Shown here in pieces: positions 32,132 through 48,323 of a stretch of 64,000 nucleotides of DNA. The stretch lies in contig OY759785.1 in NCBI GenBank assembly GCA_963662605.1, positions 1,725,721 through 1,789,720 on the forward strand, written 5' to 3'. The stretch is from Ignavibacteriaceae bacterium. Its GTDB lineage: Bacteria > Bacteroidota > Ignavibacteria > Ignavibacteriales > Ignavibacteriaceae. The notes under the pieces were generated by a model. It had not been told where the DNA came from and searched no databases. It saw only the letters and a list, made by a program, of their open reading frames with translations. A program made the translations under genes and the position numbers. Every line of letters starts with the position of its first letter. Position 1 is the stretch's first letter.

Positions 32132-32245
32132 TAACAATCTCAGCAAGTTTTATTTAAAAAAACTTTCTTATTTTGTTATCTGAGAAATTCCATTTATCTT
32201 ATATACCCTTAAATTGAAATTATTAATCATATTTAGTTGTTTTTA

Positions 32246-34348
32246 ATGAAAAACAGATCACTACTAGCAGCCTTAGCAATATCATTCATATTTGCTTCTG
32301 TCTCCGTGTTCGCACAGGGACTATCCAAAATCCAAAAAGACGATAATTCAAACTATACCAGCGTTGGAGAAATCCGAATGACAGTTTCGAATTTCGGCGT
32401 TTATGGAAACGGGCTTAGAAATCTCACCCAATCAAATCATCAGCCTTCCTGCGAATACCCTTCCGGCAGTGGCATTGAACATATCTATGTCGGCGGTTTG
32501 TGGATTGGAGGATTTCTAAAAGACAGTCCAACTTCTCAATCCAAATTAGGTCCTTATGTGACAACCGCCGCGATTGATGCAAGTTCTCTTTCTTCCGGAA
32601 GAAACGCCGGATTTGAGTTTACGAATGCCGATTCAAGCACAGTCCAGCAGTTTTCTTCGCTGCCTGATTCAAAATTTTATAAAGAGGGAAGTATATCGCA
32701 TCAAGATTATAAGCTTGATTTTAGCGATACGAGCAAGAAGTATTCGGATGGTTCTGTGATCAGTGACCATACTTCGTTGGGATTATCTATCCACCATGAA
32801 ACCTATTGCTGGGATTATTCGTTTGCGAATTTTTTCGTTATAATGAATTATACTATTAAAAACATTAATCCTAAGCAGTATATTGATAGTGTATACGTTG
32901 GTTTGTGGACGGACGCAGTTGTTCGTAATACAAAAATCACAACCTCAACTAATACTGCGTTCTTTTCACATGGCGGGGATGGATTTGCGGATACATTACA
33001 AATGGCTTATGAATATGATGCTGATGGAGATGTAGGCTACACAGATAGTTATATTGGCATTCAATATTTAGGCTCAACACCTGAAGCAAAAACTGACCAA
33101 ATTATTCCTCTTACTAATTTTAATTCTTGGTCACACAATGGCACAGATGCGAATTTTTTCACTCCCACAACCGATATTCAACGGTACGTTAAAATGCAGG
33201 GATTTTTCGGGGGGAGTAATAGATATAATTCTGGTATCAACCCCGCGGATTTAAAAACCCCGTCAAATAGATCAATATTGTTAACTCACGGTTATTACAG
33301 TAACATTGCTCCTGGTGATTCCATTAATGTTGTTTTCGCTATTGTTTGCGCGAAAAAAACTGGTAATGATCCAGCCAAGGATGATACTTGGGATCAACGC
33401 AAAACTTTTTATAGCAATGCCGATTGGGCATTACGTGCATATTATGGAAATGATCGCAACCGAGATGGTATTATTCAGCCCGATGAAGATATTAATCATG
33501 ATGGGAAAATTCAACGTTATGTTCTTCCCGCTCCGCCCGCTTCGCCAAAAGTGCACGCTGCTGTGGAGAGTAATAAAGTTACAATTTACTGGGATAAAAT
33601 TAGATCCGAAACATCACAAGATCCTATTTCCGGACTTCGTGATTTTGCCGGGTATCGGGTTTATCGTACAAACGCCGGTTTCGATTTTGATTTGACTCAA
33701 AGCAACACATCTGCTTTAGTTTTACTGACTCAAGTTGATTCAGCAGGCGTAAATGGCTTTAACAATGGATTTAAATCGGTTGAGATGAATGCTCCTGTTA
33801 CATTTGCAGGAGATACGACACACTACTGGTATAAATTAGAAGTCCCTAACCTGCTTAATGGTTGGCAATACCTATTCACAGTAACTGCCTTCGATAAAGG
33901 CGATGTTGCTAACAATGTAGAATCGCTTGAATCAAGTAAGTTATCGAATATTCTAAGAGTTGTCCCGGGAACAGTGGCTCAGGAACAAACAGCCGGGAAA
34001 ATCGGCGTTTATCCCAACCCATATTACGGCAGTGCAGTCTGGGATGGTAGTTCTGAGCGTTTACGTAAAATATATTTCTATAATCTTCCTGCGGAATGTG
34101 ATGTAACGATTTACACACTTGCGGGTGATATCGTAAAAAAATTCCATCATGACAAATCAAGCAATGGCTCTGAAATGCGTTGGTTTACTTCTTATGCTGA
34201 TGGGAAACAGCAGTTCGCCGGTGGTGAACATGCTTGGGACTTGTTAACCGATAGAGATCAGGCAATTGCTACCGGATTATATCTCTTTACGGTTAAAAGC
34301 GCAAAAGATGGTTCGATTCAAACTGGAAAATTCTTAATTGTTAAATAA
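32246..34348 (+). CDS. Secreted protein of unknown function with FN3-like segment, Ca-binding-like DxDxDG loop and T9SS-like C-terminal domain
   Basis: Signal peptide ending SVFAQG, DRNRDGIIQPDEDINHDGKIQ, and a C-terminus IGVYPNPYY...TIYTLAGDIV...GLYLFTVKS...GKFLIVK. I prefer the ATG at 32246 over the TTG at 32237. Confidence 0.6.
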   Translation: MKNRSLLAALAISFIFASVSVFAQGLSKIQKDDNSNYTSVGEIRMTVSNFGVYGNGLRNLTQSNHQPSCEYPSGSGIEHIYVGGLWIGGFLKDSPTSQSKLGPYVTTAAIDASSLSSGRNAGFEFTNADSSTVQQFSSLPDSKFYKEGSISHQDYKLDFSDTSKKYSDGSVISDHTSLGLSIHHETYCWDYSFANFFVIMNYTIKNINPKQYIDSVYVGLWTDAVVRNTKITTSTNTAFFSHGGDGFADTLQMAYEYDADGDVGYTDSYIGIQYLGSTPEAKTDQIIPLTNFNSWSHNGTDANFFTPTTDIQRYVKMQGFFGGSNRYNSGINPADLKTPSNRSILLTHGYYSNIAPGDSINVVFAIVCAKKTGNDPAKDDTWDQRKTFYSNADWALRAYYGNDRNRDGIIQPDEDINHDGKIQRYVLPAPPASPKVHAAVESNKVTIYWDKIRSETSQDPISGLRDFAGYRVYRTNAGFDFDLTQSNTSALVLLTQVDSAGVNGFNNGFKSVEMNAPVTFAGDTTHYWYKLEVPNLLNGWQYLFTVTAFDKGDVANNVESLESSKLSNILRVVPGTVAQEQTAGKIGVYPNPYYGSAVWDGSSERLRKIYFYNLPAECDVTIYTLAGDIVKKFHHDKSSNGSEMRWFTSYADGKQQFAGGEHAWDLLTDRDQAIATGLYLFTVKSAKDGSIQTGKFLIVK

Positions 34349-34360
34349 ATAGGTGCAAAT

Positions 34361-36535
34361 ATGAAAAAAACAGCGTTTCTGTTGCTTTTATTAGCTTTTG
34401 CGGCGAATTTTTCGTTCGCCCAATCAAGTAAATATCCGCTGGTTACGGTGCAGCAAATTATGGGATTTGCTGATTCAACTCACGCATTGTATCCTTCTCC
34501 GTTGGTAGGCGATACAGTAAGAGTTCAGGGCATTGTCCTTGTTCGACCGACTGTAGCAGCTATCGGTGATCGTCGGCCTATCTTATATGTAGGCTCACGT
34601 TGGAGTACATATATTCAAACCGCCGATTATGAACCATGGGGCGGATTGAATGTTATTACGAATGATACAGTAGCTTCAGCAGCTACTTTGTTCAGCGAAG
34701 TTTGTGATACGGCTACGGTATGCGAATTTACTGGCGTTGTTACAACTTATTCACCTAACACAGAACTTATTCTTGTTCCAAACATCCCTGTTGAGCCTAT
34801 TGAAAATATCGGACACCGTGCTGCTCCAATTCCAATTACATTGGAAGACTTGTGGACATCTCCGGGCACTACACCGAATTATAAATGGCAAAAATACCAT
34901 GGGATGTATGTTCAGTTAACAGCTGACGTAAGCCATACCTTGATTACTTCGGAAAGATTTGTTACGGGTGGTTCATCTTCTTCATATGGTAGATTTAAAA
35001 TCAGCGATCAAAGTGGCAACTATGCAATTATGTATCCTGCTTCAGCATACTTTAAATACACTTCTTCGATGAGTTTGACTCCGGGTGGTTATCAACCGCC
35101 GGCGGATGGATCATATATTTCATATATCCGCGGTCTTCTCATTTGGTACGGATCGTATTATGAAATTGAACCTATTTATCCCGGTGACGTTGGACCGACT
35201 CTTATTTCACCACCATCAATTAGCAGTGTGAAAAGAGATGCATTGTTGGTTAATAAAAATCAAGCTGTAACAGTATCCGCAACTATTAAAGCGACTTCTG
35301 CTCCTGTAGTCGATGCGAAAGTTCACTTTACGATTAACAGTGTAGAAGATTCAGTCTCAATGACCCGTAGTCTATCTGATACAACTATTTATAGTGCCGT
35401 TATTCCCGGTTGTACATCCGATTCATCTTTTGTTTCGTTTTATATAAAAGCTGTGGACGCAAATACGTTATCTGTCACAAATCCGGCGAATATAAAAACC
35501 AGTCAGTTTTCTTATTTCGCTATAACTAAACCACTTCAAATTCAGCACGTTAGATATAGCCCATTCGGAAGCGGGTATAGCGGATATACCGCAAGCAGTG
35601 TTGTAAGCGGAGTTTCACCAACAATTTCTTTAACAGGTACTGTTATTAGTGATACTTCTGATGTTCCTGGCCATGGTACAAGTAACCCTTCTAGAGTGTA
35701 TATGCAGAATGGCAGCGGAGCTTGGAGTGGTATTTTGGTCGGCGTCGGTGGTGCTGCCGGTACTGATGTACTGAAATTAAAACGTGGTGATAACATAACG
35801 GTTACGGGTAATATTTATATGTCCTCAATGGGAACAAAAATTGATACCCTTACATCAATTGTCGTAAATTCTTCCGGCAATGCAATGCCAACACCTACAG
35901 TTCTGACTACAGGTTCTTGCGGCACTTCAATGCTTGGATTAGTAACAGGTGAACCTTACAACGGAACTTTGGTAACGTATCAAAATATTTCGGTTGATAA
36001 TGCAAATCCTGATGGCCCACTGTATAATTACGGTGAGCAATATGTCACAGACGGTTCTACCCATACGAGAATAGCTTGGTCCGATGGTGGAACAACATAT
36101 TACAGCGATACCACTGCCCCTAAATCTACACGCGTTCTTTTAGGTGATAAATTCACTGCATTAACCGGTGTTTTAGGCTACACGCATAATTACTATAAAC
36201 TTTGTGCAAGAAAGAACGATGATGTTGTCGGATATTCAACCGATATTCGCAAAGAAAATGGTTTGCTTGCTAAAAATTATGCACTGAATCAAAATTTCCC
36301 GAATCCGTTTAACCCGTCAACGACGATCAGTTATTCTATTCCTTCAACCGGAATGGTAACTTTGAAGGTTTATGACGTACTTGGACGCGAAGTTTCAACT
36401 CTGGTTAACCAGGTTCAAGCAAACGGAAATTATAGAGTATCGTTTAATGCGTCTTCATTACCGAGCGGTATTTATTTCTACAGTTTGAACTCAAATAATT
36501 TCTCTCAAGTTAAGAAAATGATTCTTATAAAGTAA
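34361..36535 (+). CDS. Secreted protein with repeated OB-fold-like modules and T9SS C-terminal sorting domain
   Basis: Signal peptide ending FSFAQS. The N-terminus reads VTVQQIMG...VGDTVRVQGIVLV, with a second LQIQHVRY...GTVISDTS module. The C-terminus is NFPNPFNPSTTISYSIP...GIYFYSL...KKMILIK. Confidence 0.75.
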   Translation: MKKTAFLLLLLAFAANFSFAQSSKYPLVTVQQIMGFADSTHALYPSPLVGDTVRVQGIVLVRPTVAAIGDRRPILYVGSRWSTYIQTADYEPWGGLNVITNDTVASAATLFSEVCDTATVCEFTGVVTTYSPNTELILVPNIPVEPIENIGHRAAPIPITLEDLWTSPGTTPNYKWQKYHGMYVQLTADVSHTLITSERFVTGGSSSSYGRFKISDQSGNYAIMYPASAYFKYTSSMSLTPGGYQPPADGSYISYIRGLLIWYGSYYEIEPIYPGDVGPTLISPPSISSVKRDALLVNKNQAVTVSATIKATSAPVVDAKVHFTINSVEDSVSMTRSLSDTTIYSAVIPGCTSDSSFVSFYIKAVDANTLSVTNPANIKTSQFSYFAITKPLQIQHVRYSPFGSGYSGYTASSVVSGVSPTISLTGTVISDTSDVPGHGTSNPSRVYMQNGSGAWSGILVGVGGAAGTDVLKLKRGDNITVTGNIYMSSMGTKIDTLTSIVVNSSGNAMPTPTVLTTGSCGTSMLGLVTGEPYNGTLVTYQNISVDNANPDGPLYNYGEQYVTDGSTHTRIAWSDGGTTYYSDTTAPKSTRVLLGDKFTALTGVLGYTHNYYKLCARKNDDVVGYSTDIRKENGLLAKNYALNQNFPNPFNPSTTISYSIPSTGMVTLKVYDVLGREVSTLVNQVQANGNYRVSFNASSLPSGIYFYSLNSNNFSQVKKMILIK

Positions 36536-36546
36536 TTATTATATGA

Positions 36547-36587
36547 AGGTGCTGATATAAACGTTATATCAGCACCTGTATTTTTTT
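36547..36587 (+). terminator. Strong rho-independent terminator splitting the 32-45 kb block into two units
   Basis: AGGTGCTGATATAA-CG-TTATATCAGCACCT followed by GTATTTTTTT. Confidence 0.85.
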
Positions 36588-36605: not shown

Positions 36606-38147
36606 ATGATAAACAAAATTGCTCTTCTTGTATTTTCGGTGATCTTAGTTTTCCTTGCAATATCTTGCAGGGATTCTATTACGGATAATCCATTAGGAAA
36701 CAAGGCACCGACAACAAAAATATTTTTAGACTCAGCTTATGCCGTTAGTAAGCAGAAAAGTAAAATTGATATTCACTGGATTGGCGATGATCCCGATGGT
36801 TTGGTAATAGGGTATTATTTATCCTGGGATGGTACTAACTGGACATTTACAACTAAAAACGATAGTGTATTCGCATTACGTATTGGTGCAAATGATTCAT
36901 CGTATGTATTTCGCGTTGCTGCTGTTGATAATCACGGAAATGGTTTCTATGACGCAGATGTTTACCAAAATGGTATTCATTTTGGATCAGAACCATATAC
37001 GGATGTAAATAACAACAAAAAATACGATGCGGGTGAACCATTCACGGATATTGGACTCATAGATCCTCATCCGGCATCAATGCCGCTACCTATCACCAAC
37101 ACAGCACCAACTATTGCTTGGTTCGCGCATACAACTGTTCCGGATTCTAGCTTACCGGTAATGACGTTTCGCTGGGTTGTTGATGATTTGGATGGTGAAA
37201 CGACTGTTGATAGTATAAGAATTGCGCTAAATGATACAACAAATTTTGTGTCTATTCCGGGTAGTATACGAAGCGTTACTATTTTTGGATTTGATTTTAG
37301 CAGTAATACGCCTAAACTGAAGATATTCACCGAAGGTAACGCGAGCAACGTGCTTTCCTCGCTTTTACCAGGCATAAAATTAAATGATGATAATACTTTT
37401 TATATTCAGGCAGTGGATATCGCCAGTGCTAAGTCGCCATGGATTTCATCGAAATCCATCTCGAAGTCAGGTAAATGGTATGTTAAAAAGCCGCAAGGAA
37501 AGATTCTTCTGATTGACGATTACGTGAATTCCGACGATGCTACTGCAACAAGTTTTTACAGTAGCGCTTTGAGCAGTATTAACGCATCATTTGATGTTTA
37601 CAATATTCGAACGAATGATACTATACCATACATGAATGCAAATTTCCTGCAAACTTTAAAACTATATGGATGTGTGCTTTGGTATACGGATTACAGTACT
37701 CCTTCTTTAGATTTAGCTCAGGCTACAGTAAATCAGTATCTGAATGCTCATGGTAAAATTGCGTTTTCGATGCAGTTCCCCATTAATTTAACCAATGCAG
37801 ATTTATTGGGACAATTAGTTGACTTCTTGCCGATTCTTAAGGACACTTCATATGTTAGAACCTCTGTATTGAAGAACACTAAAGTTACTTCAGCAAATGA
37901 TGCCAGCTATCCTGATTTAACTGTATCGAGCCCAGTTTATAGGCCACGTGCATTTAATATACAGCCGGTTGGAGCAACTTCAATCTACACATTCCCGAAC
38001 AAAGAATTGCTTGGAACAATCGGTTTTAAAAACTCAGATAATTCATTGTTCTTTATCGGTTTGCCGCTCCATTTAATGAATGGTTCAGGAACGGTCCCGG
38101 CTTTACTGAAAAAAGTATTTACAGATTTTAATATTAGTTTACCATGA
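36606..38147 (+). CDS. Lipoprotein of unknown function (repeated W.G.D.DG modules)
   Basis: Lipobox LAISC. Repeats IHWIGDDPDGLVIGYYLSWDG and FRWVVDDLDGETTVDSI. The stop overlaps the TBDR start (ATGA, 38144-38147). Confidence 0.6.
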   Translation: MINKIALLVFSVILVFLAISCRDSITDNPLGNKAPTTKIFLDSAYAVSKQKSKIDIHWIGDDPDGLVIGYYLSWDGTNWTFTTKNDSVFALRIGANDSSYVFRVAAVDNHGNGFYDADVYQNGIHFGSEPYTDVNNNKKYDAGEPFTDIGLIDPHPASMPLPITNTAPTIAWFAHTTVPDSSLPVMTFRWVVDDLDGETTVDSIRIALNDTTNFVSIPGSIRSVTIFGFDFSSNTPKLKIFTEGNASNVLSSLLPGIKLNDDNTFYIQAVDIASAKSPWISSKSISKSGKWYVKKPQGKILLIDDYVNSDDATATSFYSSALSSINASFDVYNIRTNDTIPYMNANFLQTLKLYGCVLWYTDYSTPSLDLAQATVNQYLNAHGKIAFSMQFPINLTNADLLGQLVDFLPILKDTSYVRTSVLKNTKVTSANDASYPDLTVSSPVYRPRAFNIQPVGATSIYTFPNKELLGTIGFKNSDNSLFFIGLPLHLMNGSGTVPALLKKVFTDFNISLP

Positions 38148-40945
38148 AAAAAATAGCAGTATTAATTTTAATTTGTTTTGTATCCGTTTTCGGCCAGGAA
38201 ACCGGCAGTATGTCGGGGAGAGTTACCGATAAGAAAACCGGTGAACCTTTACTTGGCGTAAACATCGTATTCAAAGGAACCTATTACGGTGCTGTGACGG
38301 ATATAAATGGCAGCTACCGGGTTAAAAATGTTAACGCCGGTACATATTACGTTGAAATTTCCTTCATTGGTTATAAAACGGTTCAATTCACCAGCACAAA
38401 GATTGTTTCAGGTGCCAATAAAGTTCTTGATGTCCAGATGGAAGAATCAATGCTGGCACTGGGTACTGATATTGTCGTTATCGGTGAAAAGCCTATGATG
38501 GATGTTGAAGAGACTCAAAGTAAACGATCATTCAACAAGGATGATATAGCAAACGCTAAGCTTGCGGATATCGGTGCTATTGTTACTCAGCAGGCGGGAG
38601 TTGTAGCTACCGATAACGAAATCCACATACGTGGTGGCAGAAGCAATGAAAACGCGTTTTTGCTCGATGGTGTGTCCGTACAGGATCCGTTGGCGGGAAC
38701 CGGTTTCGGTTTACAGCTTTCTGCTAACGCTATTGAAGAAGTTGAAGTTATCACCGGTGGTTATAATGCCGAATACGGACAAGCGACTTCCGGCGTTGTG
38801 AACGTGAAAACCCGTGAAGGCGGCGACAGGTATCATGGTTCTTTCTCTTACAAAACCGATAACATTATAGCTAAAAGTTCATTCCATAATTTCAATACTG
38901 ATATTGTTGAAGCCAACTTTAGCGGTCCGGAACCCTTAACCAAATACGCCTTGCCAGCACTTGGTTTGCAAATTCCGGGTGAACTGATTTTCTTCGGCAA
39001 TTTCTATATGGGCATAACCGACGGTATTACGCAGGGTATGTATAAAGCGACTGCACATCAAACATACTCTTCGATTTTTCATGGTTCCACCTTTGCTCCC
39101 AGAGCAGAAAATAGCTGGTTCTGGCTTGGTAAACTGACCTACAAATACTCTCCGACTTTTAAGATTCAGTATTCGTTCAATCAGTCGGTAAGTATCAATC
39201 AGAATTCACAGTCTTTGCAGCAAAATCTAGAATATGTTGAGCCGAGTCCGGGATATCAGTATACTTTCCAGAATATTCTTGACAGTGCAAACACATATAC
39301 ACATAATAACGTTTATCAAGCGATAAGCATTACTCATACGCTAAGCCCTAAAACGTTCTATGAGTTGAAATTTAACTACTACTTTACCCATCTGCGTGCA
39401 GATGCAAACGGTAAGTATTATAAGAATTATAACCAACCAAAAGACATTACGAATTTCCCGGTTATTTATTATAACACCGATCGCGATACGCTTGGTGTGA
39501 TTCCCGGTGATGGATTCTGGGATGTCGGTAATCCATATACATGGCATGATCACTATGTTGAAGAGTATTCGGTAAAGGGCGATATCACAAGCTTCTTTGA
39601 TGAAAAAAACAAGTTTAAAGCGGGTTTTGAAAATTCATTCCAGGAGATGCAAGTTGTTGACATTTACCAGCCATGGATTGGCGAACTTGGTTTGAATAAT
39701 GACGTTTATAAAGTGTATCCCGCAAAGGGTGCATTCTATGCACAGGATAACATCAATTTCTCGGGTATGATCTTGAACTTTGGTTTGAGATTTGACTACT
39801 GGTTCCCGGGAAAATTTGTTGATGACGCGGTAAATAATCCTGATGTTGTCACAATTCCTGATCAAATCCGGAAAAACTACAAAGATGATACGTATAATTT
39901 CTTTGGAAGACGCTGGAAGGGAAGAATAAGTCCGCGTTTGGGTATCTCACATCCTGTTTCTGATTATCAAACTTTGTTTTTCTCATACGGACACTTTAGC
40001 AAATGGCCTAACCCTCAATTTGTTTACGCAAAGTTGAATCCGGTTAGTGCCCAGTCATCGTTCCAGAAATTCGGTAACCCGAATTTGAATCCTGAAACGA
40101 CTGTCGCCTATGAATTGGGTGTTAAGACACAATTTACATCAGATGATGTTTTAACACTTACTGCATATTATAAAGATATTTTTGATTACGTAAGCACCCG
40201 GTCAGCCATTATTAATTCAGCTCGTTTATCAACAACCAGTTTGACGACATATGTTAACTCAGATTATGCCCGCTCCCGTGGTCTTGAATTAGAGTATAAA
40301 AAACGTATGGGTAAATGGTTTACCGGTGCATTGAATGCTACATACGCAATTGTCACAGGTAAGAGTTCTTCTCCGGATGAAGGTATTCTTGTACAAAGCG
40401 GAAGCTTGCAGGAAACAGTAAAGGAATTTTACATGACCTGGGATCGTCCTATCAACATATCTTTATCAACAAACTTTTATGTTGAAAGAGATAATCCGTT
40501 GTTCGGTTTCGGCAGCGGCATTCTGGATGATTACAATGTATTTATTCGTGTTCAGTTTGAATCAGGAAAGCGTTATACTCCTGCCTATTTTAATGGCGAT
40601 TACACCGCTGAAGGTAAGCCTGATTACGAATATATTACTACCGATCGCAATAATAAAATCGGACAAAATTGGTTTTGGGTTGATATGAACTTCGAGAAGA
40701 ATTTTTCGATCGGCAAATTGAGGTTCGCATTCTCAGTTGAAGTGAATAATTTGCTTGATCAAAAAAACTCTGCTATTATCAATCCGGTTACTGGAAAAGC
40801 TTATGAGGTCGGTCAAAATGGCCCGGCATCATGGAACGATTCGCGTTATCCTGATTTGCAGGCTCCGATAAGCGCTACTCCGCTTAATCCGGCACGGTAT
40901 CTGACCAGAAGAAATGTCAAATGTGGAATTAGCTTAAGATTTTAA
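38144..40945 (+). CDS. TonB-dependent receptor with N-terminal carboxypeptidase-regulatory-like domain
   Basis: Signal peptide followed by the CarboxypepD_reg segment GRVTDKKTGEPLLGVNIVFKGTYYGAVTDINGSYRV. The plug region reads IHIRGGRSNENAFLLDGVSVQDP and GGYNAEYGQATSGVVNVKTREG. The C-terminal residue is Phe. Confidence 0.85.
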   Translation: MKKIAVLILICFVSVFGQETGSMSGRVTDKKTGEPLLGVNIVFKGTYYGAVTDINGSYRVKNVNAGTYYVEISFIGYKTVQFTSTKIVSGANKVLDVQMEESMLALGTDIVVIGEKPMMDVEETQSKRSFNKDDIANAKLADIGAIVTQQAGVVATDNEIHIRGGRSNENAFLLDGVSVQDPLAGTGFGLQLSANAIEEVEVITGGYNAEYGQATSGVVNVKTREGGDRYHGSFSYKTDNIIAKSSFHNFNTDIVEANFSGPEPLTKYALPALGLQIPGELIFFGNFYMGITDGITQGMYKATAHQTYSSIFHGSTFAPRAENSWFWLGKLTYKYSPTFKIQYSFNQSVSINQNSQSLQQNLEYVEPSPGYQYTFQNILDSANTYTHNNVYQAISITHTLSPKTFYELKFNYYFTHLRADANGKYYKNYNQPKDITNFPVIYYNTDRDTLGVIPGDGFWDVGNPYTWHDHYVEEYSVKGDITSFFDEKNKFKAGFENSFQEMQVVDIYQPWIGELGLNNDVYKVYPAKGAFYAQDNINFSGMILNFGLRFDYWFPGKFVDDAVNNPDVVTIPDQIRKNYKDDTYNFFGRRWKGRISPRLGISHPVSDYQTLFFSYGHFSKWPNPQFVYAKLNPVSAQSSFQKFGNPNLNPETTVAYELGVKTQFTSDDVLTLTAYYKDIFDYVSTRSAIINSARLSTTSLTTYVNSDYARSRGLELEYKKRMGKWFTGALNATYAIVTGKSSSPDEGILVQSGSLQETVKEFYMTWDRPINISLSTNFYVERDNPLFGFGSGILDDYNVFIRVQFESGKRYTPAYFNGDYTAEGKPDYEYITTDRNNKIGQNWFWVDMNFEKNFSIGKLRFAFSVEVNNLLDQKNSAIINPVTGKAYEVGQNGPASWNDSRYPDLQAPISATPLNPARYLTRRNVKCGISLRF

Positions 40946-40947
40946 CT

Positions 40948-41928
40948 ATGAAAAATATCATTTTTGTAATTATACTGTTTACTCTATCCTTAACAGAACT
41001 GCACGCACAATTGTTTCCGGTTCTGGGGGGACAAAGAGCTGGAATTTCAACAGCCGAGTTCCTCAAGATCGGTGTTGGCGGCAGGGCATCTGCCATGGGC
41101 GATGCGTTCGTTGCGCTTAGTAACGATGCCTCCAGTCTATACTGGAACCCGGCCGGACTCGTCCAATTTGATAAGGATGAGGTTCTTTTTTCTCATAACA
41201 AGTGGGTCGTTGATATTAATCATGACTTTCTTGGAGCGGTGTATCATCTGGATGGCTCCAACGCGTTTGGACTTTCATTCACTTCGCTGACAATGGACGA
41301 TATGCCTGTAACCACTGAATTTATGCCTTTCGGAACCGGTGAGTATTTTACGTATAGCGATGTGGCTGTTGCCTTAACGTATTCCCGGAAAATGACAAGT
41401 CAGTTCAGCTTTGGCGGAAGTATCAAATATATGGAAGAGACGCTTGATAAACTGAAAATGCGCGGCGTTATGATTGACCTCGGTACATATTACTGGACCG
41501 GTTTAGGTACATCCCGTTTCGCCGTAACCGTTTCAAATTTCGGTAATAACCTGGCACCGGATGGAAAAGTTGTATTGGTGAGTAAGCGTTCGACTTCTAC
41601 TTGGCAATCCTTTTCACCTCCAACCATCTTCCGTATTGGTTTTGCATTTGAACCGTATCAGGATGAAATGAACAGAGTAACTGCTTCTGCTCAGCTTAAT
41701 CACCCGAACGATAACAGTGAAAACTTGTCAACCGGTGTTGAGTATTGCTGGAATAATATGTTGTTCCTCCGCGGTGGTTATAAATTTAACGTCGAAGAAC
41801 AAAATTATTCTTTCGGTGCCGGTTTTAAGGCACCAATCAGCTTTGCTAATGTTACCGTAGATTACAGTTTTTCTAATTTTGAAAAATTAGGTTCAGCTCA
41901 AAGATTTTCTATATCATTAGGTTTATAA
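40948..41928 (+). CDS. PorV/PorQ-family (FadL-fold) outer membrane protein
   Basis: Signal peptide followed by AGISTAEFLKIGVGGRASAMGDAFVALSNDASSLYWNPAGL, characteristic of PorV/PorQ-like proteins. Only 2 nt separate it from the TBDR stop. Confidence 0.65.
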   Translation: MKNIIFVIILFTLSLTELHAQLFPVLGGQRAGISTAEFLKIGVGGRASAMGDAFVALSNDASSLYWNPAGLVQFDKDEVLFSHNKWVVDINHDFLGAVYHLDGSNAFGLSFTSLTMDDMPVTTEFMPFGTGEYFTYSDVAVALTYSRKMTSQFSFGGSIKYMEETLDKLKMRGVMIDLGTYYWTGLGTSRFAVTVSNFGNNLAPDGKVVLVSKRSTSTWQSFSPPTIFRIGFAFEPYQDEMNRVTASAQLNHPNDNSENLSTGVEYCWNNMLFLRGGYKFNVEEQNYSFGAGFKAPISFANVTVDYSFSNFEKLGSAQRFSISLGL

Positions 41929-41934
41929 AACGCA

Positions 41935-42975
41935 ATGAAAAAACTTTTATTATTACTACCGCTTGTTATTATATTTTTAGCCGGCTGTCAACCGGATAAA
42001 TTGGATTTAACCGAATTTAAGACTACTGCCACCCCAAATACAGGTGATACTATGTATATACGGTTGGGTGGTGAGTGGGGAGGCTTTAACAACCCAAGCG
42101 CATTGCTTATTGGGCATGAACCCTTTATATATGTCTGCGATAAAGATAATAATCGAATTGTTATGCTTAATACCGCCGGGACTGTTTTAGGTTTCTTATC
42201 AATTAAGCAGCCAGTTGCAATCGCGGAGGATTATAAAGATAATCTAATCGTTTGTGCTTCATTTGATACATTAATATTAGGTTCTACAGTAACTTATAGT
42301 GCTGTTTATAAAATCAACCTGTATGAAGCACGCCATGTTATCGCTAACGCGAAAATGACCAGAATTTTACCTGTGAAACCGGCTGATTTTGTAGCGACAA
42401 GAAAATATACTGCTGTAGCAGCATTTTTTGACAATTCATATTATGTAGCTCGGTTTGGGCCTAATAATACCAGTGTTTATGATCCTGATAATTCAATATT
42501 GAAATTTTCAGGGGATACGTTGACTGGAAAAGTTAGCGGTCTTGATCCATTAAGTATAGGGCTAAAAACTGCTTATGGTATAAGTTCTATTACTCCCTTC
42601 TCAAAGCAGAACTTTGATTTTATAACTACATATAGCACTAATGTTAGTTTTAAAGCGATATGGTATGCAATTGATCTACAAGGCGATTACTATTCGAAAT
42701 TTTCTCCCGGCGACGGATCAGATTTTATTAAACCTGACAGGTTCCAAAATGCAACCGGTTCCTGCTTAGATGCATATGGAAATATTTTCATTGCGGATGC
42801 CGGAAAAGATAGTGTTTATAAATTCAATTCATCAGGTTATGAAATGCAATCGTTTGGTGGTACTTCAATATTCACGAAACCCGTCGCAGTCGGTCATTTT
42901 GACAAGATACTGTATGTCCTCGATGCCGGTAAAAATTCTATACTACGATTCATCTTATCAACGGACACTAAATGA
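41935..42975 (+). CDS. NHL-repeat-like beta-propeller lipoprotein
   Basis: Lipobox FLAGC. NHL-like repeats include DNNRIVMLNTAGTVLG, GNIFIADAGKDSVYKFNSSGYE and ILYVLDAGKNSILRF. Confidence 0.5.
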   Translation: MKKLLLLLPLVIIFLAGCQPDKLDLTEFKTTATPNTGDTMYIRLGGEWGGFNNPSALLIGHEPFIYVCDKDNNRIVMLNTAGTVLGFLSIKQPVAIAEDYKDNLIVCASFDTLILGSTVTYSAVYKINLYEARHVIANAKMTRILPVKPADFVATRKYTAVAAFFDNSYYVARFGPNNTSVYDPDNSILKFSGDTLTGKVSGLDPLSIGLKTAYGISSITPFSKQNFDFITTYSTNVSFKAIWYAIDLQGDYYSKFSPGDGSDFIKPDRFQNATGSCLDAYGNIFIADAGKDSVYKFNSSGYEMQSFGGTSIFTKPVAVGHFDKILYVLDAGKNSILRFILSTDTK

Positions 42976-45344
42976 GAAAAATATTTAGCCTGATTTTATT
43001 ATGCAGTTTGTCTGTTTTCGGACAGACCGTTGTTTCAATTTCTGCACTTCATACTAATAATGCCGCCGGTGTACCTGCCGATACTGCTACTCTTTATAAA
43101 GTTAAAGGGGTTGTTACGGCAACCAACCAGCTCGGTAATAATGCTACCTATGGCCCCGGAGCAATTCAGGATGAAACAGCCGGAATGACGGTTTATGGCA
43201 ACGCATTTGCATCAGGCTCTTCACTGGCAATAGGCGATACTGTTTGGGTTACTTCGCGCCTTGCATTCTACAACGGACTTACACAGCTTGATATGCGGAA
43301 AATAGCTGCTTCATCTACAGTAACTAAAGTTGCTTCAGGTAAAGCGCCAGAGCCTCAAGTTGTTACAATATATCAGATATTGAACCAGCAGTGGGCCGGA
43401 TATGAAGAATTTGAAAGCCGCCTGATTCGAATCAATAATGTTACTTTTTCTTCTACAGGTGCTTTTGCATCAGGTACAACAGGAAAAACTTACTCAATTA
43501 CGGATGGCACGAATTCTCTCGATTTTCGTTTAACATCCAATGCCGGTACCTCAATTAATAACCTCACTATTCCAACCGGCAAGTGTGATGTTATTGGTAT
43601 CATCAGCCAGTACAAAACATCAACTCCCTGGAATTCCGGTTATCAGTTGATGCCTCGTATGATCAGTGATATTGTTACCGATGCAACTCCTCTCGTTTAC
43701 AACAATCTTGTTGTAAACAACATTAAGACAGATGCATTTACCGTTAATTTCCAGACAGTAAGAGCTGGAAATACTCAGATTAAATACGGATTAACTTCAG
43801 CATTGGAATTGGATTCTGTGGTTATCGCAGGAGATACAACGAACCATAACGTTACTTTATCCGGATTGCAGCCGAATACATTATATTATTTCAAGGCAGT
43901 TTCTACTAATGCGGCTGGAACAAGTGAAAGTGCTATTCAGCAGGTCACAACCGCTTCCGGAAGCACAAAAACCGGAGCGATTAATGTTTATTTTAACATG
44001 CCGGTTGATACAAGTGTGGCGATAGCCGGAAACGCGGCAAAGGGCAGTATATCTTTTGAAGATAAACTTGTTGCCAGAGTAAATAATGCTGTTTATTCAA
44101 TTGACTTGGCTGTGTATAGCTTGAACGGTTTGAGTAATCTTACCTCGGCTTTGTTAAATGCTAAAAACAGAGGAATTAAAATTCGTCTTGTATACGATAG
44201 CCGAGACGGTAGTGCCACTCAGGCAAACGTCCAGACTCTCCTTAACGCCGGTATTTTAATGAGCCAAAGACCCGCGTCACTTTCCGGAATTATGCATAAT
44301 AAGTTTTTTGTCTTTGACAATCGTGATACCGTCTCGGATAATGATTGGGTATGGACGGGTTCATGGAATCCCAATAGTGCAGAAGTTGGATATAAAAACA
44401 ACGCACTGGAAATAAATGATCCGACTATTGCCTCTGCATACACAAAGGAATTTGAGGAAATGTGGGGGTCTAGTACCGATACTCCGAATTCATCCGCCGC
44501 TAAATTTGCGTATAATAAGACTAACAATACTGCGCACTCATTTACTATCGGCGGCAGGGCAGTGAGATTATATTTCAGTCCTTCTGATGGTGTAACATCA
44601 CAAATTTCTTCTACTATTGCTACGGCTCAAACGAGTATCTATTTTGCTGTAATGTCCTTCACGAAGAACGATTTAGGGCAGGCGATATACTACCGTTACA
44701 GTACCGGAGTAAAAGATATTAAAGGTATCATCAACAATATTAATGATACCGGCAGTGAATACGCGTATCTGCAAAACTACGGCAGCGTTGTAGCTGATGC
44801 AGGTGCCACCAATTCATCTGTCACATTACATGACAAATACGCCATTATTGATAGTTATACTGCAAATAGTGACCCTACGGTTATTACCGGCTCGCATAAC
44901 TGGTCGGCTGCTGCTGAAACAAACAATGATGAGAATACTCTTATCATTACCGATTTCAAAATTGCTAATCAGTACATGCAGGACTTTAAGAAACGTTACA
45001 ATGACGCTGGCGGTACGGGTACATTTGTTATTCCTACAGATGTAAAAGATACAAAGAACTCTGTTAAAGAATATGATGCTCATTTGTATCAAAACTATCC
45101 GAATCCGTTTAACCCTGTTACAACGATTCGTTTCGAGACTACTCATTCACAGAATGTGAAAATCGAAGTCTATAATGCGTTAGGTCAGAAAGTTGCAACA
45201 GTATTTGACCGGATTGTTAATCCCGGTATTTATGCGGTTGATTTCAATTCAGCATCACTCGGAAATGTCTCCAGCGGCATTTATTACTACCGCCTTACCG
45301 CCGGTGTTTACAGTGATGTAAAGAAAATGATTTTGATGAAGTAA
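42972..45344 (+). CDS. Secreted phospholipase D/nuclease-family protein (two HKD motifs) with OB-like N-terminal module, FN3 domain and T9SS C-terminal sorting domain
   Basis: HKD1 is HNKFFVFD...GSWN (44295-44318) and HKD2 is HDKYAIID...GSHNWS (44829-44852). An FN3-like segment reads FTVNFQTVRAGNTQIKYG...YYFKAVSTNAAG. The C-terminus is NYPNPFNPVTTIRFE...GIYYYRL...KKMILMK. The start overlaps the upstream stop (ATGA). Confidence 0.8.
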   Translation: MRKIFSLILLCSLSVFGQTVVSISALHTNNAAGVPADTATLYKVKGVVTATNQLGNNATYGPGAIQDETAGMTVYGNAFASGSSLAIGDTVWVTSRLAFYNGLTQLDMRKIAASSTVTKVASGKAPEPQVVTIYQILNQQWAGYEEFESRLIRINNVTFSSTGAFASGTTGKTYSITDGTNSLDFRLTSNAGTSINNLTIPTGKCDVIGIISQYKTSTPWNSGYQLMPRMISDIVTDATPLVYNNLVVNNIKTDAFTVNFQTVRAGNTQIKYGLTSALELDSVVIAGDTTNHNVTLSGLQPNTLYYFKAVSTNAAGTSESAIQQVTTASGSTKTGAINVYFNMPVDTSVAIAGNAAKGSISFEDKLVARVNNAVYSIDLAVYSLNGLSNLTSALLNAKNRGIKIRLVYDSRDGSATQANVQTLLNAGILMSQRPASLSGIMHNKFFVFDNRDTVSDNDWVWTGSWNPNSAEVGYKNNALEINDPTIASAYTKEFEEMWGSSTDTPNSSAAKFAYNKTNNTAHSFTIGGRAVRLYFSPSDGVTSQISSTIATAQTSIYFAVMSFTKNDLGQAIYYRYSTGVKDIKGIINNINDTGSEYAYLQNYGSVVADAGATNSSVTLHDKYAIIDSYTANSDPTVITGSHNWSAAAETNNDENTLIITDFKIANQYMQDFKKRYNDAGGTGTFVIPTDVKDTKNSVKEYDAHLYQNYPNPFNPVTTIRFETTHSQNVKIEVYNALGQKVATVFDRIVNPGIYAVDFNSASLGNVSSGIYYYRLTAGVYSDVKKMILMK

Positions 45345-45349
45345 AAGTC

Positions 45350-45380
45350 AGGGCATGTGAAAACATGCCCTTGCTAATTT
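45350..45380 (+). terminator. Probable terminator after the PLD-CTD gene
   Basis: AGGGCATGT-GAAA-ACATGCCCT followed by a weak T-tract (TGCTAATTTT). Confidence 0.5.
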
Positions 45381-45413
45381 TACCGAAAAACTCTATTTTT
45401 ACATATCGTTTTT

Positions 45414-45469
45414 GGGGCTATAGCTCAGCTGGGAGAGCGTCCCGATAGCATCGGGAAGGTCAGCGGTTC
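45414..45469 (+). pseudogene. Truncated 5' fragment of a tRNA-Ala-like gene (acceptor 5' strand to T-loop TTC), anticodon-loop ATAGCAT
   Basis: GGGGCTA-TA-GCTC-AGCTGGGA-GAGC-G-TCCCG-ATAGCAT-CGGGA-AGGTC-AGCGG-TTC, then unrelated AGAGCTAATAAAG. No 3' T-stem or acceptor strand follows. Confidence 0.7.
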
Positions 45470-45493
45470 AGAGCTAATAAAGAAGTTTAGTAT

Positions 45494-45566
<73 letters not shown>

Positions 45567-45570
45567 CTAA

Positions 45571-45595
45571 GGGACGCAAACGCGTCCCTTTTTTT
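45571..45595 (+). terminator. Rho-independent terminator after tRNA-Ala
   Basis: GGGACGC-AAAC-GCGTCCC followed by seven T residues. Confidence 0.85.
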
Positions 45596-45634
45596 ATGTC
45601 TGTAGTTACCAATCACATTGTGGTTATTGGATGC

Positions 45635-45743
45635 ATGGTGGTAGCTCATCTTATGTAAAGCTGTCAAGTTGGGAGAGCGTCCCGATGCATCGGGAAGGTC
45701 AGCGGTTCCTCGCAGAGTCCCGTGGAGATCCCGCTTAGCTCCA
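45635..45743 (+). pseudogene. tRNA-Ala-like module 1 (disrupted: D-loop and T-loop insertions, 6-nt anticodon loop, mispaired acceptor stem)
   Basis: ATGGTGG-TA-GCTCA-[TCTTATGTAAAGCTGTCAA]-GTTGGGAGAGCG-TCCCG-ATGCAT-CGGGA-AGGTCAGCGGTTC-[CTCGCAGAGTCCCGTGGAG]-ATCCCGCTTAGCTCCA, aligned by eye to the intact gene. Confidence 0.65.
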
Positions 45744-45747
45744 CTAA

Positions 45748-45772
45748 GGGACGCAAACGCGTCCCTTTTTTT
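45748..45772 (+). terminator. Duplicate copy of the tRNA-Ala terminator inside repeat unit 2
   Basis: Identical GGGACGC-AAAC-GCGTCCC-T7. Confidence 0.8.
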
Positions 45773-45812
45773 ATGTCTGTAGTTACCCAATCACATTGTG
45801 GTTATTGGATGC

Positions 45813-45921
45813 ATGGTGGTAGCTCATCTTATGTAAAGCTGTCAAGTTGGGAGAGCGTCCCGATGCATCGGGAAGGTCAGCGGTTCCTCGCAGAGTCCCG
45901 TGGAGATCCCGCTTAGCTCCA
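45813..45921 (+). pseudogene. tRNA-Ala-like module 2 (copy of module 1)
   Basis: Same sequence as 45635-45743, shifted by 178 nt. Confidence 0.65.
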
Positions 45922-45925
45922 CAAA

Positions 45926-45948
45926 GTACGCATTTGCGTCTTTTTTTT
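45926..45948 (+). terminator. Weak hairpin + T8 (diverged homologue of the repeated terminator)
   Basis: ACGC-ATTT-GCGT followed by C and eight T residues. The flanks (CAAAG..., ...ATGTC) align with those of the repeated terminator. Confidence 0.5.
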
Positions 45949-46097
45949 ATGTCCTTGATATTTTCTCGCCGCTTAAATATGAGAAGAGTCACATTAAACA
46001 TTTCGAGAATATTTTCGCGGATTATTTGGATGCCGTGCATAATTTTATGAATTTTGAAATCACTTTAAAATAATACTGTATCCGTTACATTCTACAC

Positions 46098-48323
46098 ATG
46101 AAAAATCAATTAAACCATATTAAAAAATTAATAGCTCCAATCCTCAGTTTCCGACTTACCCTAAAAAACTTGTCATGGATTGTATTCGGCTTCACGCTAT
46201 TGCTGCTTATTATGCCGCTAACCAAGTATTTTAGTTTTGAGTTTTGCGCCGTAGAGGGGTTGTTTTTATCGTTCACCGGAGGAGTGGTATTTATCCTGAT
46301 GAACCGAAGCAGATCGAAAATCAATCTCAGGGAGTTCGCGGGTAAGTGCTTTCTCATATTTCTCATACCTCTGGCAATGCAGACAATTAAAATTCTCTTT
46401 GCCGGTTATTCGTGCCTTTGGCATGGAACCCGTTTCTACTTTGTTATTACCATGCCCTCGGTTTTCGTTGGTCTCGGCATAGCAGCATTTGCGTTGATTA
46501 CCAATAAGAAGCACAGTCTGGCGTTATTCATAGGCTATTACATAGTAATGGCACTTTGGCCGTTGTGGATACTTTACTACTATCAGCAGCTGTATTTCTA
46601 CAACCCGCTAATCGGGATTTTCCCCGGTACTGTTTATGACGAGCTGATTCGCATTACGCCTTTATTGATTATTCATCAGATCGGCTGTATCTGTATTGCG
46701 ATTGTACTTATCATTTTTGCACAAAAGAATACGGGAAAGAACTCTCGAAGAGGATTAACCATACTGCTTTTTCTAACCGGATTTGTAGTGTGGTATGTTT
46801 CGCCTATTTCTCCGTTTGTCACACCGCGTGCTCATATTGAAAAGGAGCTTCGGGGAAGAATCAAGACGGATCATTTTCTGATTTATTACAAAGAGGGGAG
46901 TCTGACTTTAGATGCTGCTAAGGATATCGGATTGCTCCATGAGGTTTACTTTGAGCAGCTCAGGCAGTTTTATCAGACAGAACCGAAAAGCATAATACGA
47001 TCCTACCTTTTCCATTCTCCGGAGGAAAAATCCCGGTTGTTGGGGACTGCCGCGGCAGATTTCGCTAAACCCTGGAAGAATGAAATATATATAACAGATG
47101 AATCTATAGCTAATACTCTCAAGCACGAACTTTCACATGTATTTACCGCTGCTTTCGGGTATTCTCCATACGAACTATCACATGGTTTCGACCCAGCTAT
47201 GCTGGAGGGCGCCGCAACCGCTTCCACGCCTGTGTATGATGATTTCCCGTTGAACTATATGGCATTTCAGGCCTTTACTGCTGATACAAACTTATCGGTC
47301 TCATCGCTTTTTGGCGGATTAAGTTTTTTTGGCGGCGTATCCTCTACATCATATTGCATTTCAGGATCCTTTTGCCGGTATTTGATTAACTCATATGGGA
47401 TATTGAAATTCCGGGATGCATACAAAAATGGATTTTCTAAGAAAATCTATGGAAAAACACTCAGTGAGTTGGGGAAAGAGTACAAAGCGAATCTGTTTTC
47501 GCAGGGATATGTTTACAATGCGGATTTAGCCGATTTCTATTTTAGGGGACAGGGGCTGCTCCAAAAGACTTCACCACATTATGCCGCTGAGTTAAAGCAC
47601 GAATCCGTATTGCTGATGAAGCAGGGCAGATACACAGAGGCTTTGCTCTCACTGGGAAGTATTCACAAGAGTCTTTTGCAGGTTTCGCTTTTAAAAGTTA
47701 AAATTTTGGAGAAATTGAAACGTTTTGATGAAGCTATCTTTATATTAAGAGAGGCACGTGAAGTTTGTGGTAAGTCGGGAGCATGTCGCGAAATAGAATT
47801 AGCCTTAGCAAATTGCTATTTCATGAAAGGTGACCTTGATAAAGCCGGGAGCATGTATAAAGATCTACGGGAGCACGTCCAACGACCTTTTTTTAGATCA
47901 ATTTGCTCCTCAAGGCTTTTGGCTGTACAAAATCGGGAGCACGTAGAGGAAGTTTTCTGCGATGATGCCAATGTTAGATACCGTCTATATTCTAACCTGC
48001 TAACTGAAACCGGCAACTCTTCGATAATTCCTGTTGTTTTAATACTTGCGGGCAATGCACATGCACCTTACGCAGATACGAAGAAAGTAATATCCAGATG
48101 GTTTGACCATCAGAAAACGATTGAAGAATACAACGCTCTTTGGTTGTTGCGGTTTGCAATAAATCATGGTGATACGGAATTTGCCAAAGACATTTTGTAT
48201 AAAAATGATTCAAAAAACATTATTTTTTCACCAGCAATTTCCGAAGAACGGAAAAAGATGCGTGCTATGGAATTGATCCTTGAAAGAGGGTTTCAGTACA
48301 ATATTTGGAATAATCATGAGTGA
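46098..48323 (+). CDS. Polytopic membrane protein with HExxH metallopeptidase-like motif and C-terminal TPR-like region
   Basis: About 240 aa of N-terminal TM helices, then TLKHELSHVFTAAFG (HExxH). Helical repeats such as RYTEALLSLGSI..., RFDEAIFILREA... and GDLDKAGSMYKDL follow. Confidence 0.55.
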   Translation: MKNQLNHIKKLIAPILSFRLTLKNLSWIVFGFTLLLLIMPLTKYFSFEFCAVEGLFLSFTGGVVFILMNRSRSKINLREFAGKCFLIFLIPLAMQTIKILFAGYSCLWHGTRFYFVITMPSVFVGLGIAAFALITNKKHSLALFIGYYIVMALWPLWILYYYQQLYFYNPLIGIFPGTVYDELIRITPLLIIHQIGCICIAIVLIIFAQKNTGKNSRRGLTILLFLTGFVVWYVSPISPFVTPRAHIEKELRGRIKTDHFLIYYKEGSLTLDAAKDIGLLHEVYFEQLRQFYQTEPKSIIRSYLFHSPEEKSRLLGTAAADFAKPWKNEIYITDESIANTLKHELSHVFTAAFGYSPYELSHGFDPAMLEGAATASTPVYDDFPLNYMAFQAFTADTNLSVSSLFGGLSFFGGVSSTSYCISGSFCRYLINSYGILKFRDAYKNGFSKKIYGKTLSELGKEYKANLFSQGYVYNADLADFYFRGQGLLQKTSPHYAAELKHESVLLMKQGRYTEALLSLGSIHKSLLQVSLLKVKILEKLKRFDEAIFILREAREVCGKSGACREIELALANCYFMKGDLDKAGSMYKDLREHVQRPFFRSICSSRLLAVQNREHVEEVFCDDANVRYRLYSNLLTETGNSSIIPVVLILAGNAHAPYADTKKVISRWFDHQKTIEEYNALWLLRFAINHGDTEFAKDILYKNDSKNIIFSPAISEERKKMRAMELILERGFQYNIWNNHE

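Follow-up and report, generated by a model that had tools for sequence, protein, structure and literature searches.

A conserved TonB-dependent receptor cluster with exchangeable phosphodiesterases: a candidate SusD-less system for nucleic acid uptake in Ignavibacteria, Rhodothermales and Balneolales

Background

In Bacteroides thetaiotaomicron, the ddbABCDEF genes are required for DNA depletion (doi 10.1101/2025.03.18.642099). DUF5689 is a domain of DdbD, which has been proposed to bind DNA as the partner of DdbC, a TonB-dependent transporter (doi 10.1101/2025.03.18.642099; PMC12478041), and this proposal is based on an AlphaFold3 complex and on a likeness to a HIN-domain/DNA structure (doi 10.1101/2025.03.18.642099). 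In Riemerella anatipestifer, the DUF5689 protein RA0C_RS04920, paired with the receptor-like barrel RA0C_RS04915, is essential for natural transformation (PMC8459023). The present work deals with a gene cluster carried by a stretch of 64,000 nucleotides, called here the window, from an Ignavibacteriaceae bacterium (GenBank assembly GCA_963662605.1, contig OY759785.1, positions 1,725,721 to 1,789,720 of the forward strand). The genome is complete (3.88 Mb) and its nearest named relative is the Ignavibacteriaceae metagenome-assembled chromosome OY762937.1. The core of the cluster has the order A-B-C-D-E-F, in which A is a protein with a PorZ-type tail, B a type IX secretion system (T9SS) cargo protein with DUF5689, C a lipoprotein, D a TonB-dependent receptor, E a PorV/PorQ-family barrel and F an NHL lipoprotein; it is followed in the window by G, a secreted double-HKD protein. 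This cluster is interpreted, with moderate confidence and on the basis of sequence comparison, as a SusD-less system that captures and takes up nucleic acid from outside the cell and as an undescribed variant of the ddb-type loci. No description of such an architecture (PorV/PorQ with a TonB receptor in Ignavibacteria, or PorQ in polysaccharide utilization loci, PULs) was found in the literature.

The ddb locus and the window cluster both combine a receptor with DUF5689 proteins and secreted nucleases, the latter recognized here by their domains. Both are without SusD and share a PUL-like logic of binding, cutting and importing. Unlike those of the ddb locus, the DUF5689 proteins of the cluster are T9SS cargo bearing a C-terminal domain (CTD) and not lipoproteins, the module being duplicated in B and fused to a nuclease in G. 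The nuclease is here a double-HKD protein, whereas the ddb paper makes no mention of T9SS, PorV or PLD-type enzymes, and A, C, the PorQ-like E and the NHL lipoprotein F are without ddb counterparts. The PULs of the SusC/SusD type likewise comprise a TonB-dependent transporter, extended at its N-terminus and encoded with surface binders and polymer-degrading enzymes. The cluster differs from them by a receptor that falls below the SusC/RagA cut-off (TIGR04056, 78 vs 368 bits), by a display that would use T9SS tails and a PorQ-like barrel and not lipoproteins only, and by a substrate that is probably nucleic acid. A further point of comparison is provided by PorZ and PorU, whose C-terminal domains are retained and bind PorQ and PorV, respectively (PMC10202324). 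In these PorQ-PorZ and PorV-PorU pairs, as in the window, a PorV/PorQ-family barrel is encoded with a protein bearing a CTD of the retained type (PMC10202324), and the putative docking of A on E is modelled after that of PorZ on PorQ. Unlike PorQ-PorZ, the A/E pair goes together with a TonB-dependent receptor and exists in six genomic copies with different cargo enzymes, no sorting role being implied.

A conserved six-gene core

The original prediction had singled out five genes, C to G (g1 to g5), as a translationally coupled operon. The five open reading frames (ORFs) are indeed found on the forward strand at 36606-38147, 38144-40945, 40948-41928, 41935-42975 and 42972-45344, and their junctions are as tight as announced, with ATGA overlaps of 4 nt at 38144-38147 and 42972-42975 and gaps of 2 nt (40946-40947) and 6 nt (41929-41934). 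If genes and junctions stand, the functional unit does not consist of these five genes: it also includes the pair just before them (32246-36535), and the HKD gene lies outside the core. Judged by gene order in other genomes, C to G form the tail end of an ancient outer-membrane cluster with a core of six genes. The features of the locus are as follows.

32246..34348, + strand: gene A, 700-aa secreted protein, conserved core member, C-terminus GKFLIVK
34361..36535, + strand: gene B, 724-aa T9SS cargo with a type-A CTD, conserved core member, two DUF5689-like modules
36547-36577, + strand: hairpin of the B-C spacer, 14 bp and T-run, terminator or attenuator
36606..38147, + strand: gene C (g1), 513-aa lipoprotein, lipobox Cys21, core member
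38144..40945, + strand: gene D (g2), 933-aa TonB-dependent receptor, best-conserved core member
40948..41928, + strand: gene E (g3), 326-aa PorV/PorQ-family barrel of the 14-strand type, core member
41935..42975, + strand: gene F (g4), 346-aa lipoprotein, lipobox Cys18, six-bladed NHL beta-propeller, core member
42972..45344, + strand: gene G (g5), 790-aa T9SS cargo with DUF5689, FN3, two HKD domains and CTD, lineage-specific add-on
43026-43673, + strand: DUF5689 of gene G (six-frame family search, 71.8 bits, E = 1.3e-19)
about 43704-43940, + strand: FN3 domain of gene G (Pfam fn3)
44295-44318 and 44829-44852, + strand: HKD motifs of gene G, in two Nuc-like HKD domains
about 45096-45332, + strand: type-A CTD of gene G (Por_Secre_tail)
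45350-45371, no strand assigned: downstream hairpin, 9-bp palindrome, terminator-like on both strands, 3' of the HKD stop codon, downstream end of the unit

Across several families of the window's order, the seven genes A to G are collinear in 20 genomes; A-B-C-D-E-F is retained in 18-20 of 20 genomes of that order. Within the order, identity to the window reaches 66-76% for D, 65-77% for E, 53-67% for A, 41-50% for C, 42-60% for F and 34-49% for B. More distant carriers were first found with the profile of gene A, and 20, then 40 further genomes were checked for gene order. All of the 20 first-sampled genomes from other classes or families retain A-(B)-C-D-E-F, at 22-60% identity and with unrelated flanks; Rhodothermus marinus, Balneola sp. 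and Cyclonatronum proteinivorum were recognized among the distant carriers by exact-sequence match. Over the whole sample of 80 loci (28 in the window's order and 52 outside), the core order is observed in about 74, distributed among Ignavibacteria, Rhodothermales and Balneolales, the exceptions being mostly contig ends. Of the 401 genomes sampled in the phylum, 165 gave a full-length orthologue of gene A in the profile search. The regions surrounding the cluster do not follow it: the upstream lipA/2-oxoacid-dehydrogenase flank is common only to the family, and synteny of the downstream genes (a TPR/HExxH protein and a CCA-like enzyme) is confined to the relative of the same genus. Since the flanks diverge beyond family and genus, the cluster is conserved beyond background collinearity, and mere background synteny was rejected as the cause of its conservation. 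The gene order, whose survey in relatives had been proposed in the original prediction, is thus maintained well past the Ignavibacteria.

Exchangeable phosphodiesterases after gene F

The HKD gene follows F in 20 of the 28 loci of the window's order vs none of the 52 loci outside. As indicated by this distribution, it is a later add-on that is specific to the window's order, and the sole non-core member of the cluster. The position that it occupies was scanned in 59 loci by considering the next gene after F, on the same strand and within 400 nt. According to Pfam, the 59 slot genes encode PLDc_2 (16), Exo_endo_phos (EEP; 10), NPP (PF01663; 6), DUF5689 (9) and Por_Secre_tail (29) domains. With tblastn, the NPP enzyme, a lipoprotein, was found at 9 Balneolaceae loci, and a Rhodothermus-type enzyme combining EEP and CTD at 11 loci from at least six families. 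In some Ignavibacteriales, a 413-aa EEP + CTD gene lies between F and the HKD gene or replaces the latter. Each family of slot enzymes is limited to its own lineage. On these domain assignments, three non-homologous phosphodiester-cleaving families were independently recruited to one position, a clean case of non-orthologous replacement that can be used to assign a function to A, C and F.

Other contents of the slot deserve mention. Three Balneolaceae loci (L152, L153 and L154) have, between the NHL and NPP genes, an additional TonB-dependent receptor (877-917 aa) whose N-terminus is also of the CarboxypepD_reg type. Two loci of a single family (L139 and L167) have in this position a Met-zincin of about 790 aa (DUF5117/DUF5118/DUF4953), which is not a nuclease, and two others (L144 and L172) a protein with DUF1028 and TPR.

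DUF5689 modules and the double-HKD protein

Gene G had been credited with two complete HxKxxxxD...GSxN motifs, an FN3 domain and a T9SS CTD, and all of them are present. Pfam detects two PLDc_2 domains (E = 1e-37); the motifs read H442NKFFVFD and H620DKYAIID, with GSxN at 463 and 640, and are intact in 16 of 16 orthologues. The type-A CTD (TIGR04183/PF18962) scores 37.9 bits vs a cut-off of 23. Among proteins of solved structure, the HKD halves come nearest to the endonuclease Nuc (1byr, 1e-11), to Zucchini and to NucT and not to phospholipases, so that a nuclease is favoured over a phospholipase. Nuc (Salmonella plasmid, 1byr), NucT (Helicobacter) and Zucchini share with G the PLD-superfamily fold and the intact HxKxxxxD/GSxN motifs, and the two halves of G would mimic the Nuc homodimer within one chain. 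Unlike these three proteins, G joins both HKD domains in one polypeptide that also includes DUF5689, FN3 and a T9SS tail, and its activity is a predicted one.

The N-terminal module of G, originally described as OB-like, exists and can now be identified as the DNA-associated DUF5689, which is also found in the G orthologues (4e-8 to 1e-17). It was missed by a hmmscan of the G protein even at E <= 1. This is a filter artefact, and negative single-protein scans are untrustworthy for DUF5689. In five other loci (L024, L035, L037, L180 and L182), the G orthologues are longer (1068-1106 aa, 38-40% identity) and an extra N-terminal region of about 300 aa precedes their DUF5689.

The same module is present in the core. 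Gene B has two DUF5689-like modules of the OB/HIN type (about residues 20-270 and 375-600), is without catalytic domain and ends with a Por_Secre_tail/TIGR04183 domain (44.3 bits vs a cut-off of 23). Its first module aligns with the DUF5689 module of G by hhalign (98.2%, E = 2.9e-14, 216 columns). Two DUF5689 modules are found by hmmsearch in the B orthologues, the match of the window's own B being weak (3e-4), and a Balneolales orthologue matches PF18942 directly with 39 bits, which reaches the Pfam cut-off. When G and B are compared by BLASTP, only the common CTD is seen; the common N-terminal module is visible at the profile level only. From these matches, gene B is a candidate DdbD-like DNA binder.

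A PorQ-like barrel and a PorZ-type tail

The ORF of gene A opens with TTG at 32237 (703 aa), the likely start being the ATG at 32246 (700 aa). Its N-terminal part of about 430 aa belongs to no known family and is followed by an FN3-like domain and a C-terminal domain of the PorZ/PorU type. The protein is well conserved (mean column identity of 69% over 19 orthologues) and has no match in Pfam, NCBIfam or the sequences of the PDB, profile search included. Its tail does not match the type-A CTD model TIGR04183/PF18962 and falls instead in a PorZ-like subclass. The AlphaFold2 model obtained with 19 orthologues is poor (pLDDT, for predicted local distance difference test, of 55), and its C-terminal half alone can be interpreted.

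Gene E had been called a PorV-family paralogue and a possible shuttle for the HKD cargo. Membership of the family is clear, with 233 bits for NF033709 (cut-off 90) over positions 3-324 of 326. Gene E is nevertheless below the cut-offs of the equivalog models, with 91.5 vs 250 for PorV (NF033710), 72-79 vs 220 for PorQ (NF033711) and 91 vs 325 for PorV2 (NF052325). A PorV-type shuttle for the HKD protein is accordingly not retained, the likely partner of E being A. The genuine PorU (947 bits) and its neighbouring PorV (253 bits, cut-off 250) are encoded at about 2.05 Mb of the genome, PorQ (240 bits, cut-off 220) at about 1.957 Mb, and PorZ (352 bits, cut-off 260) is also found elsewhere. Gene E as the organism's PorV or PorQ was rejected, given these failed cut-offs and the true PorV and PorQ elsewhere, and so was the cluster as the T9SS attachment complex, since PorU, PorV, PorZ and PorQ are at other loci. 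The genome contains 11 PorV/PorQ-family paralogues, 19 Plug-domain receptors, more than 100 type-A CTD genes and no SusD. With such numbers of CTD genes and PorV/Q-family paralogues, a CTD gene beside a PorV paralogue, which had been regarded as special, is not a distinctive association.

The tail of A is more informative. A hidden Markov model (HMM) of its last 118 residues was run against every ORF of the genome, and each of the five best non-self matches (5e-15 to 2e-10) has a PorV/Q-family gene 81-128 bp downstream. At these five loci, a D-like receptor precedes the A-like large protein and the barrel is directly downstream. None of the more than 100 ordinary CTD cargo genes is matched, PorU being a weak match, and the five paralogous tails align with the C-terminal end of the PorZ model (1e-6 to 1e-11). 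Six of the eleven PorV/Q-family barrels are tied to a receptor and to a protein with a PorZ-type tail. The recurrence of the trio of receptor, A-like protein and barrel in five paralogous copies makes E the probable surface anchor of A, next to D. GHL10, NAGPA and GH88 enzymes accompany two of these trios, and at least two of the trio loci are of a glycan-degrading kind. As two of the trios stand beside glycan-type enzymes and the genome is without SusD, the trio looks like the general PUL-like architecture of this organism, of which the window cluster would be the nucleic-acid version. The original prediction had excluded a canonical PUL for want of a SusD partner. The 100%-complete genome has indeed no match to SusD (PF07980), but the exclusion is half right only, the same trio forming the PUL-like loci of the organism.

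Three other loci deserve mention. In the window, a 1807-aa protein (8191-13614) has a C-terminus (about 13303-13611) that matches that of the PorZ model (E = 4.8e-9) and weakly the A-tail HMM (4.9e-4), with no adjoining PorV/Q-family gene. A 426-aa outer-membrane protein of the FadL/Toluene_X type (24289-25569, E = 1e-69), encoded between mutS2 and a MutY-like gene, shows sub-threshold matches to BamG and to the PorV family. Outside the window, at 40510-48654 of the genome (L042), a PorV/Q-family paralogue (92 bits) comes after a 2374-aa secreted protein of SprA-like size, which has no match to the SprA model and a weak one to anammox S-layer proteins; a 549-aa barrel-like gene follows the paralogue.

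The receptor and the lipoproteins

Gene D is a TonB-dependent receptor, as initially called. Pfam recognizes a CarboxypepD_reg (CarbopepD_reg_2) N-terminal extension, a Plug (PF07715, 45 bits, cut-off 23.9) and a barrel of the 22-strand type (PF00593, TonB_dep_Rec, 77.5 bits, cut-off 27), and its identity in other classes is still 36-60%. The possibility that D is the DdbC orthologue was rejected, the matches being confined to the N-terminal extension. Indeed, the 13-14 receptors that adjoin canonical DUF5689 lipoproteins match D over this extension only (best BLAST 1.5e-7 over 97 aa). A DdbC-type profile aligns with no more than positions 1-240 (about 180-240 residues) of the D orthologues, at 42-58 bits, and gives as much, 55 bits, to an unrelated receptor encoded in the same genome. 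Canonical DUF5689 lipoproteins were found in two families (10 of 10 and 4 of 9 genomes) in which gene A was detected in 0 of 28 and 0 of 21; this hints at a complementary distribution of the cluster and the canonical DUF5689 pairs.

Both lipoprotein calls hold, the lipobox cysteines being Cys21 in C and Cys18 in F, and neither protein, as read directly, has the strict Bacteroidia lipoprotein export motif given in the ddb paper. Neither has a paralogue elsewhere in the genome. Single-sequence scans of A, C and F against Pfam and NCBIfam gave nothing useful, and profile searches of the PDB were also empty for A and C. Gene C was found in 43 of 61 relatives. Its AlphaFold2 model (pLDDT 86) comprises two FN3/Ig-like domains and a C-terminal alpha/beta domain resembling class-I glutamine amidotransferases, and the Foldseek matches are FN3 tandems and the glutaminase domains of CTPS and PdxT. 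The lipobox cysteine is the sole invariant one; with no conserved catalytic cysteine, the amidotransferase-like domain appears non-catalytic. For gene F, the predicted NHL propeller was not seen by the single-sequence Pfam scan and was recovered with a profile of 19 orthologues, which matches NHL propellers of the PDB (Pizza, PknD, TRIM71) with E = 9e-28 and 3-5 stretches.

Proposed mechanism and alternatives

The mechanism proposed here is drawn entirely from comparative genomics. According to their sequences, B and G are exported by T9SS via ordinary type-A CTDs and would be displayed on the cell surface, where B would hold DNA or RNA and G would cleave phosphodiester bonds to release oligonucleotides. 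Gene A would keep its distinct PorZ/PorU-like CTD and dock through it on E, standing beside the receptor D as a surface partner that would fill the job of SusD. The lipoproteins C and F would complete the complex, and D would import the fragments with TonB energy. The imported product could be a source of phosphorus, nitrogen or carbon, or transforming DNA; the degradative enzymes favour nutrition, and the deep conservation of the core is compatible with transformation. The original suggestion of a surface-displayed HKD phosphodiesterase or nuclease, coupled to TonB uptake without SusD, gains support from the Nuc-like HKD halves, DUF5689 and the slot enzymes.

Several observations weigh against nucleic acid uptake. 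In about half of the loci sampled, no enzyme of the three types adjoins F, and all 18 loci from the other orders of the class are devoid of them, so that the nuclease link is frequent and not universal. NPP enzymes act on nucleotides and on many other phosphodiesters, beyond nucleic acids. The DNA binding of DUF5689 is, in the literature, a structure-based proposal, and D is not the DdbC orthologue. The model of A is of low confidence and its gene is 6.7 kb away from E in the window, not adjacent to it as in the paralogous trios. Finally, we infer every protein-protein contact of the proposed complex.

An unlikely alternative is that the cluster encodes a DNA receptor for natural transformation, i.e. 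the outer-membrane DNA-import step of competence in pilus-independent lineages, the nucleases trimming the incoming DNA. Such a role would fit the essential DUF5689 protein and CarboxypepD_reg-type barrel of Riemerella (PMC8459023), and D and E are so deeply conserved, and at such high identity, that a housekeeping-type machine is a better fit than a locus for a particular nutrient. The genome also encodes ComEC and two DprA homologues, but these genes are near-universal (controls were positive in 10-11 of 14 genomes) and thus uninformative. No competence gene is in or beside the cluster, D is unrelated to the Riemerella/DdbC barrel clade beyond its N-terminal extension, and processive secreted nucleases and NPP fit nutritional degradation better. 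Scavenging of another polymer (teichoic-acid-like polymers, phospholipid head groups, glycans or organophosphates), with DUF5689 as a generic OB-type binder, is judged about as improbable as transformation. The NPP (PF01663) and PLD-superfamily (PF13091) enzymes accept many phosphodiesters, the loci devoid of an adjacent nuclease would be explained, paralogous trios of the same genome serve glycans, and A, C and F carry no substrate assignment. Against this explanation, the HKD halves group with the nucleases Nuc, Zucchini and NucT, EEP + CTD enzymes of the DNase I-like superfamily occupy the same slot, and the core member B consists of DUF5689 modules, a domain experimentally tied so far only to DNA systems (doi 10.1101/2025.03.18.642099; PMC8459023).

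The least probable explanation, considered very unlikely, is that of a T9SS accessory or attachment function, in which A and E would be a PorZ/PorQ-type pair or a shuttle for the neighbouring CTD cargo and the receptor-like barrel would take part in secretion. It would account for the family of E, the PorZ/PorU-type tail of A and the presence of two CTD cargo genes in the cluster. The genuine PorU, PorV, PorZ and PorQ are nevertheless encoded elsewhere, E fails three equivalog cut-offs and D has a normal Plug and barrel. Moreover, the cargo gene G is evolutionarily dispensable and E is not, and chance alone would provide a CTD neighbour in a 3.9-Mb genome that has more than 100 CTD genes.

Nucleic acid capture and uptake thus remains the preferred interpretation. 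Large amounts of phosphorus and nitrogen, as well as genes, are present as extracellular DNA in the sediments and waters inhabited by Ignavibacteria, Rhodothermales and Balneolales, and the cluster represents a concrete and genetically testable candidate for outer-membrane DNA uptake there, e.g. in Rhodothermus marinus. It also suggests that T9SS may, beyond the release of enzymes, put together the surface-side half of machines for TonB-dependent uptake, replacing the SusD lipoproteins of Bacteroidia. A wider and more tentative proposal, which we consider doubtful as it stands, is that a PorQ-like barrel holding a secreted protein by its retained PorZ-type CTD is a general replacement of SusD for TonB-dependent transporters in the SusD-less lineages of the FCB (Fibrobacterota-Chlorobiota-Bacteroidota) group. 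The six-gene version would then be their dedicated outer-membrane DNA import route, for nutrition and possibly for transformation, as a T9SS-assembled 'utilisome' of an undescribed kind. The replacement of HKD, EEP and NPP enzymes by lineage, the pairing of A-type tails with barrels, the exclusion of the Por proteins and the negative result on DdbC orthology are new for this genome.

Transcription units and neighbouring hairpins

The terminators announced on both sides of the five genes were found as a hairpin with a T-run at 36547-36577 and as a hairpin at 45350-45371. Over the whole region, 13 terminator-like sites were counted vs 8.2 +/- 3.2 in shuffled sequences, and such a scan is weak by itself. 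Where the spacer could be read, the B-C spacer of most relatives also contains a stable hairpin, whose sequence is unrelated to that of the window; despite the weak scan, this punctuation is therefore conserved. C to G plausibly constitute one transcription unit and A-B another, and the two units are probably split by the conserved hairpin. A terminator-like hairpin (AAGGGACGCAAACGCGTCCCTT followed by a T-run) occurs twice in identical form shortly downstream of the cluster, at 45569-45590 and 45746-45767, 177 nt apart.

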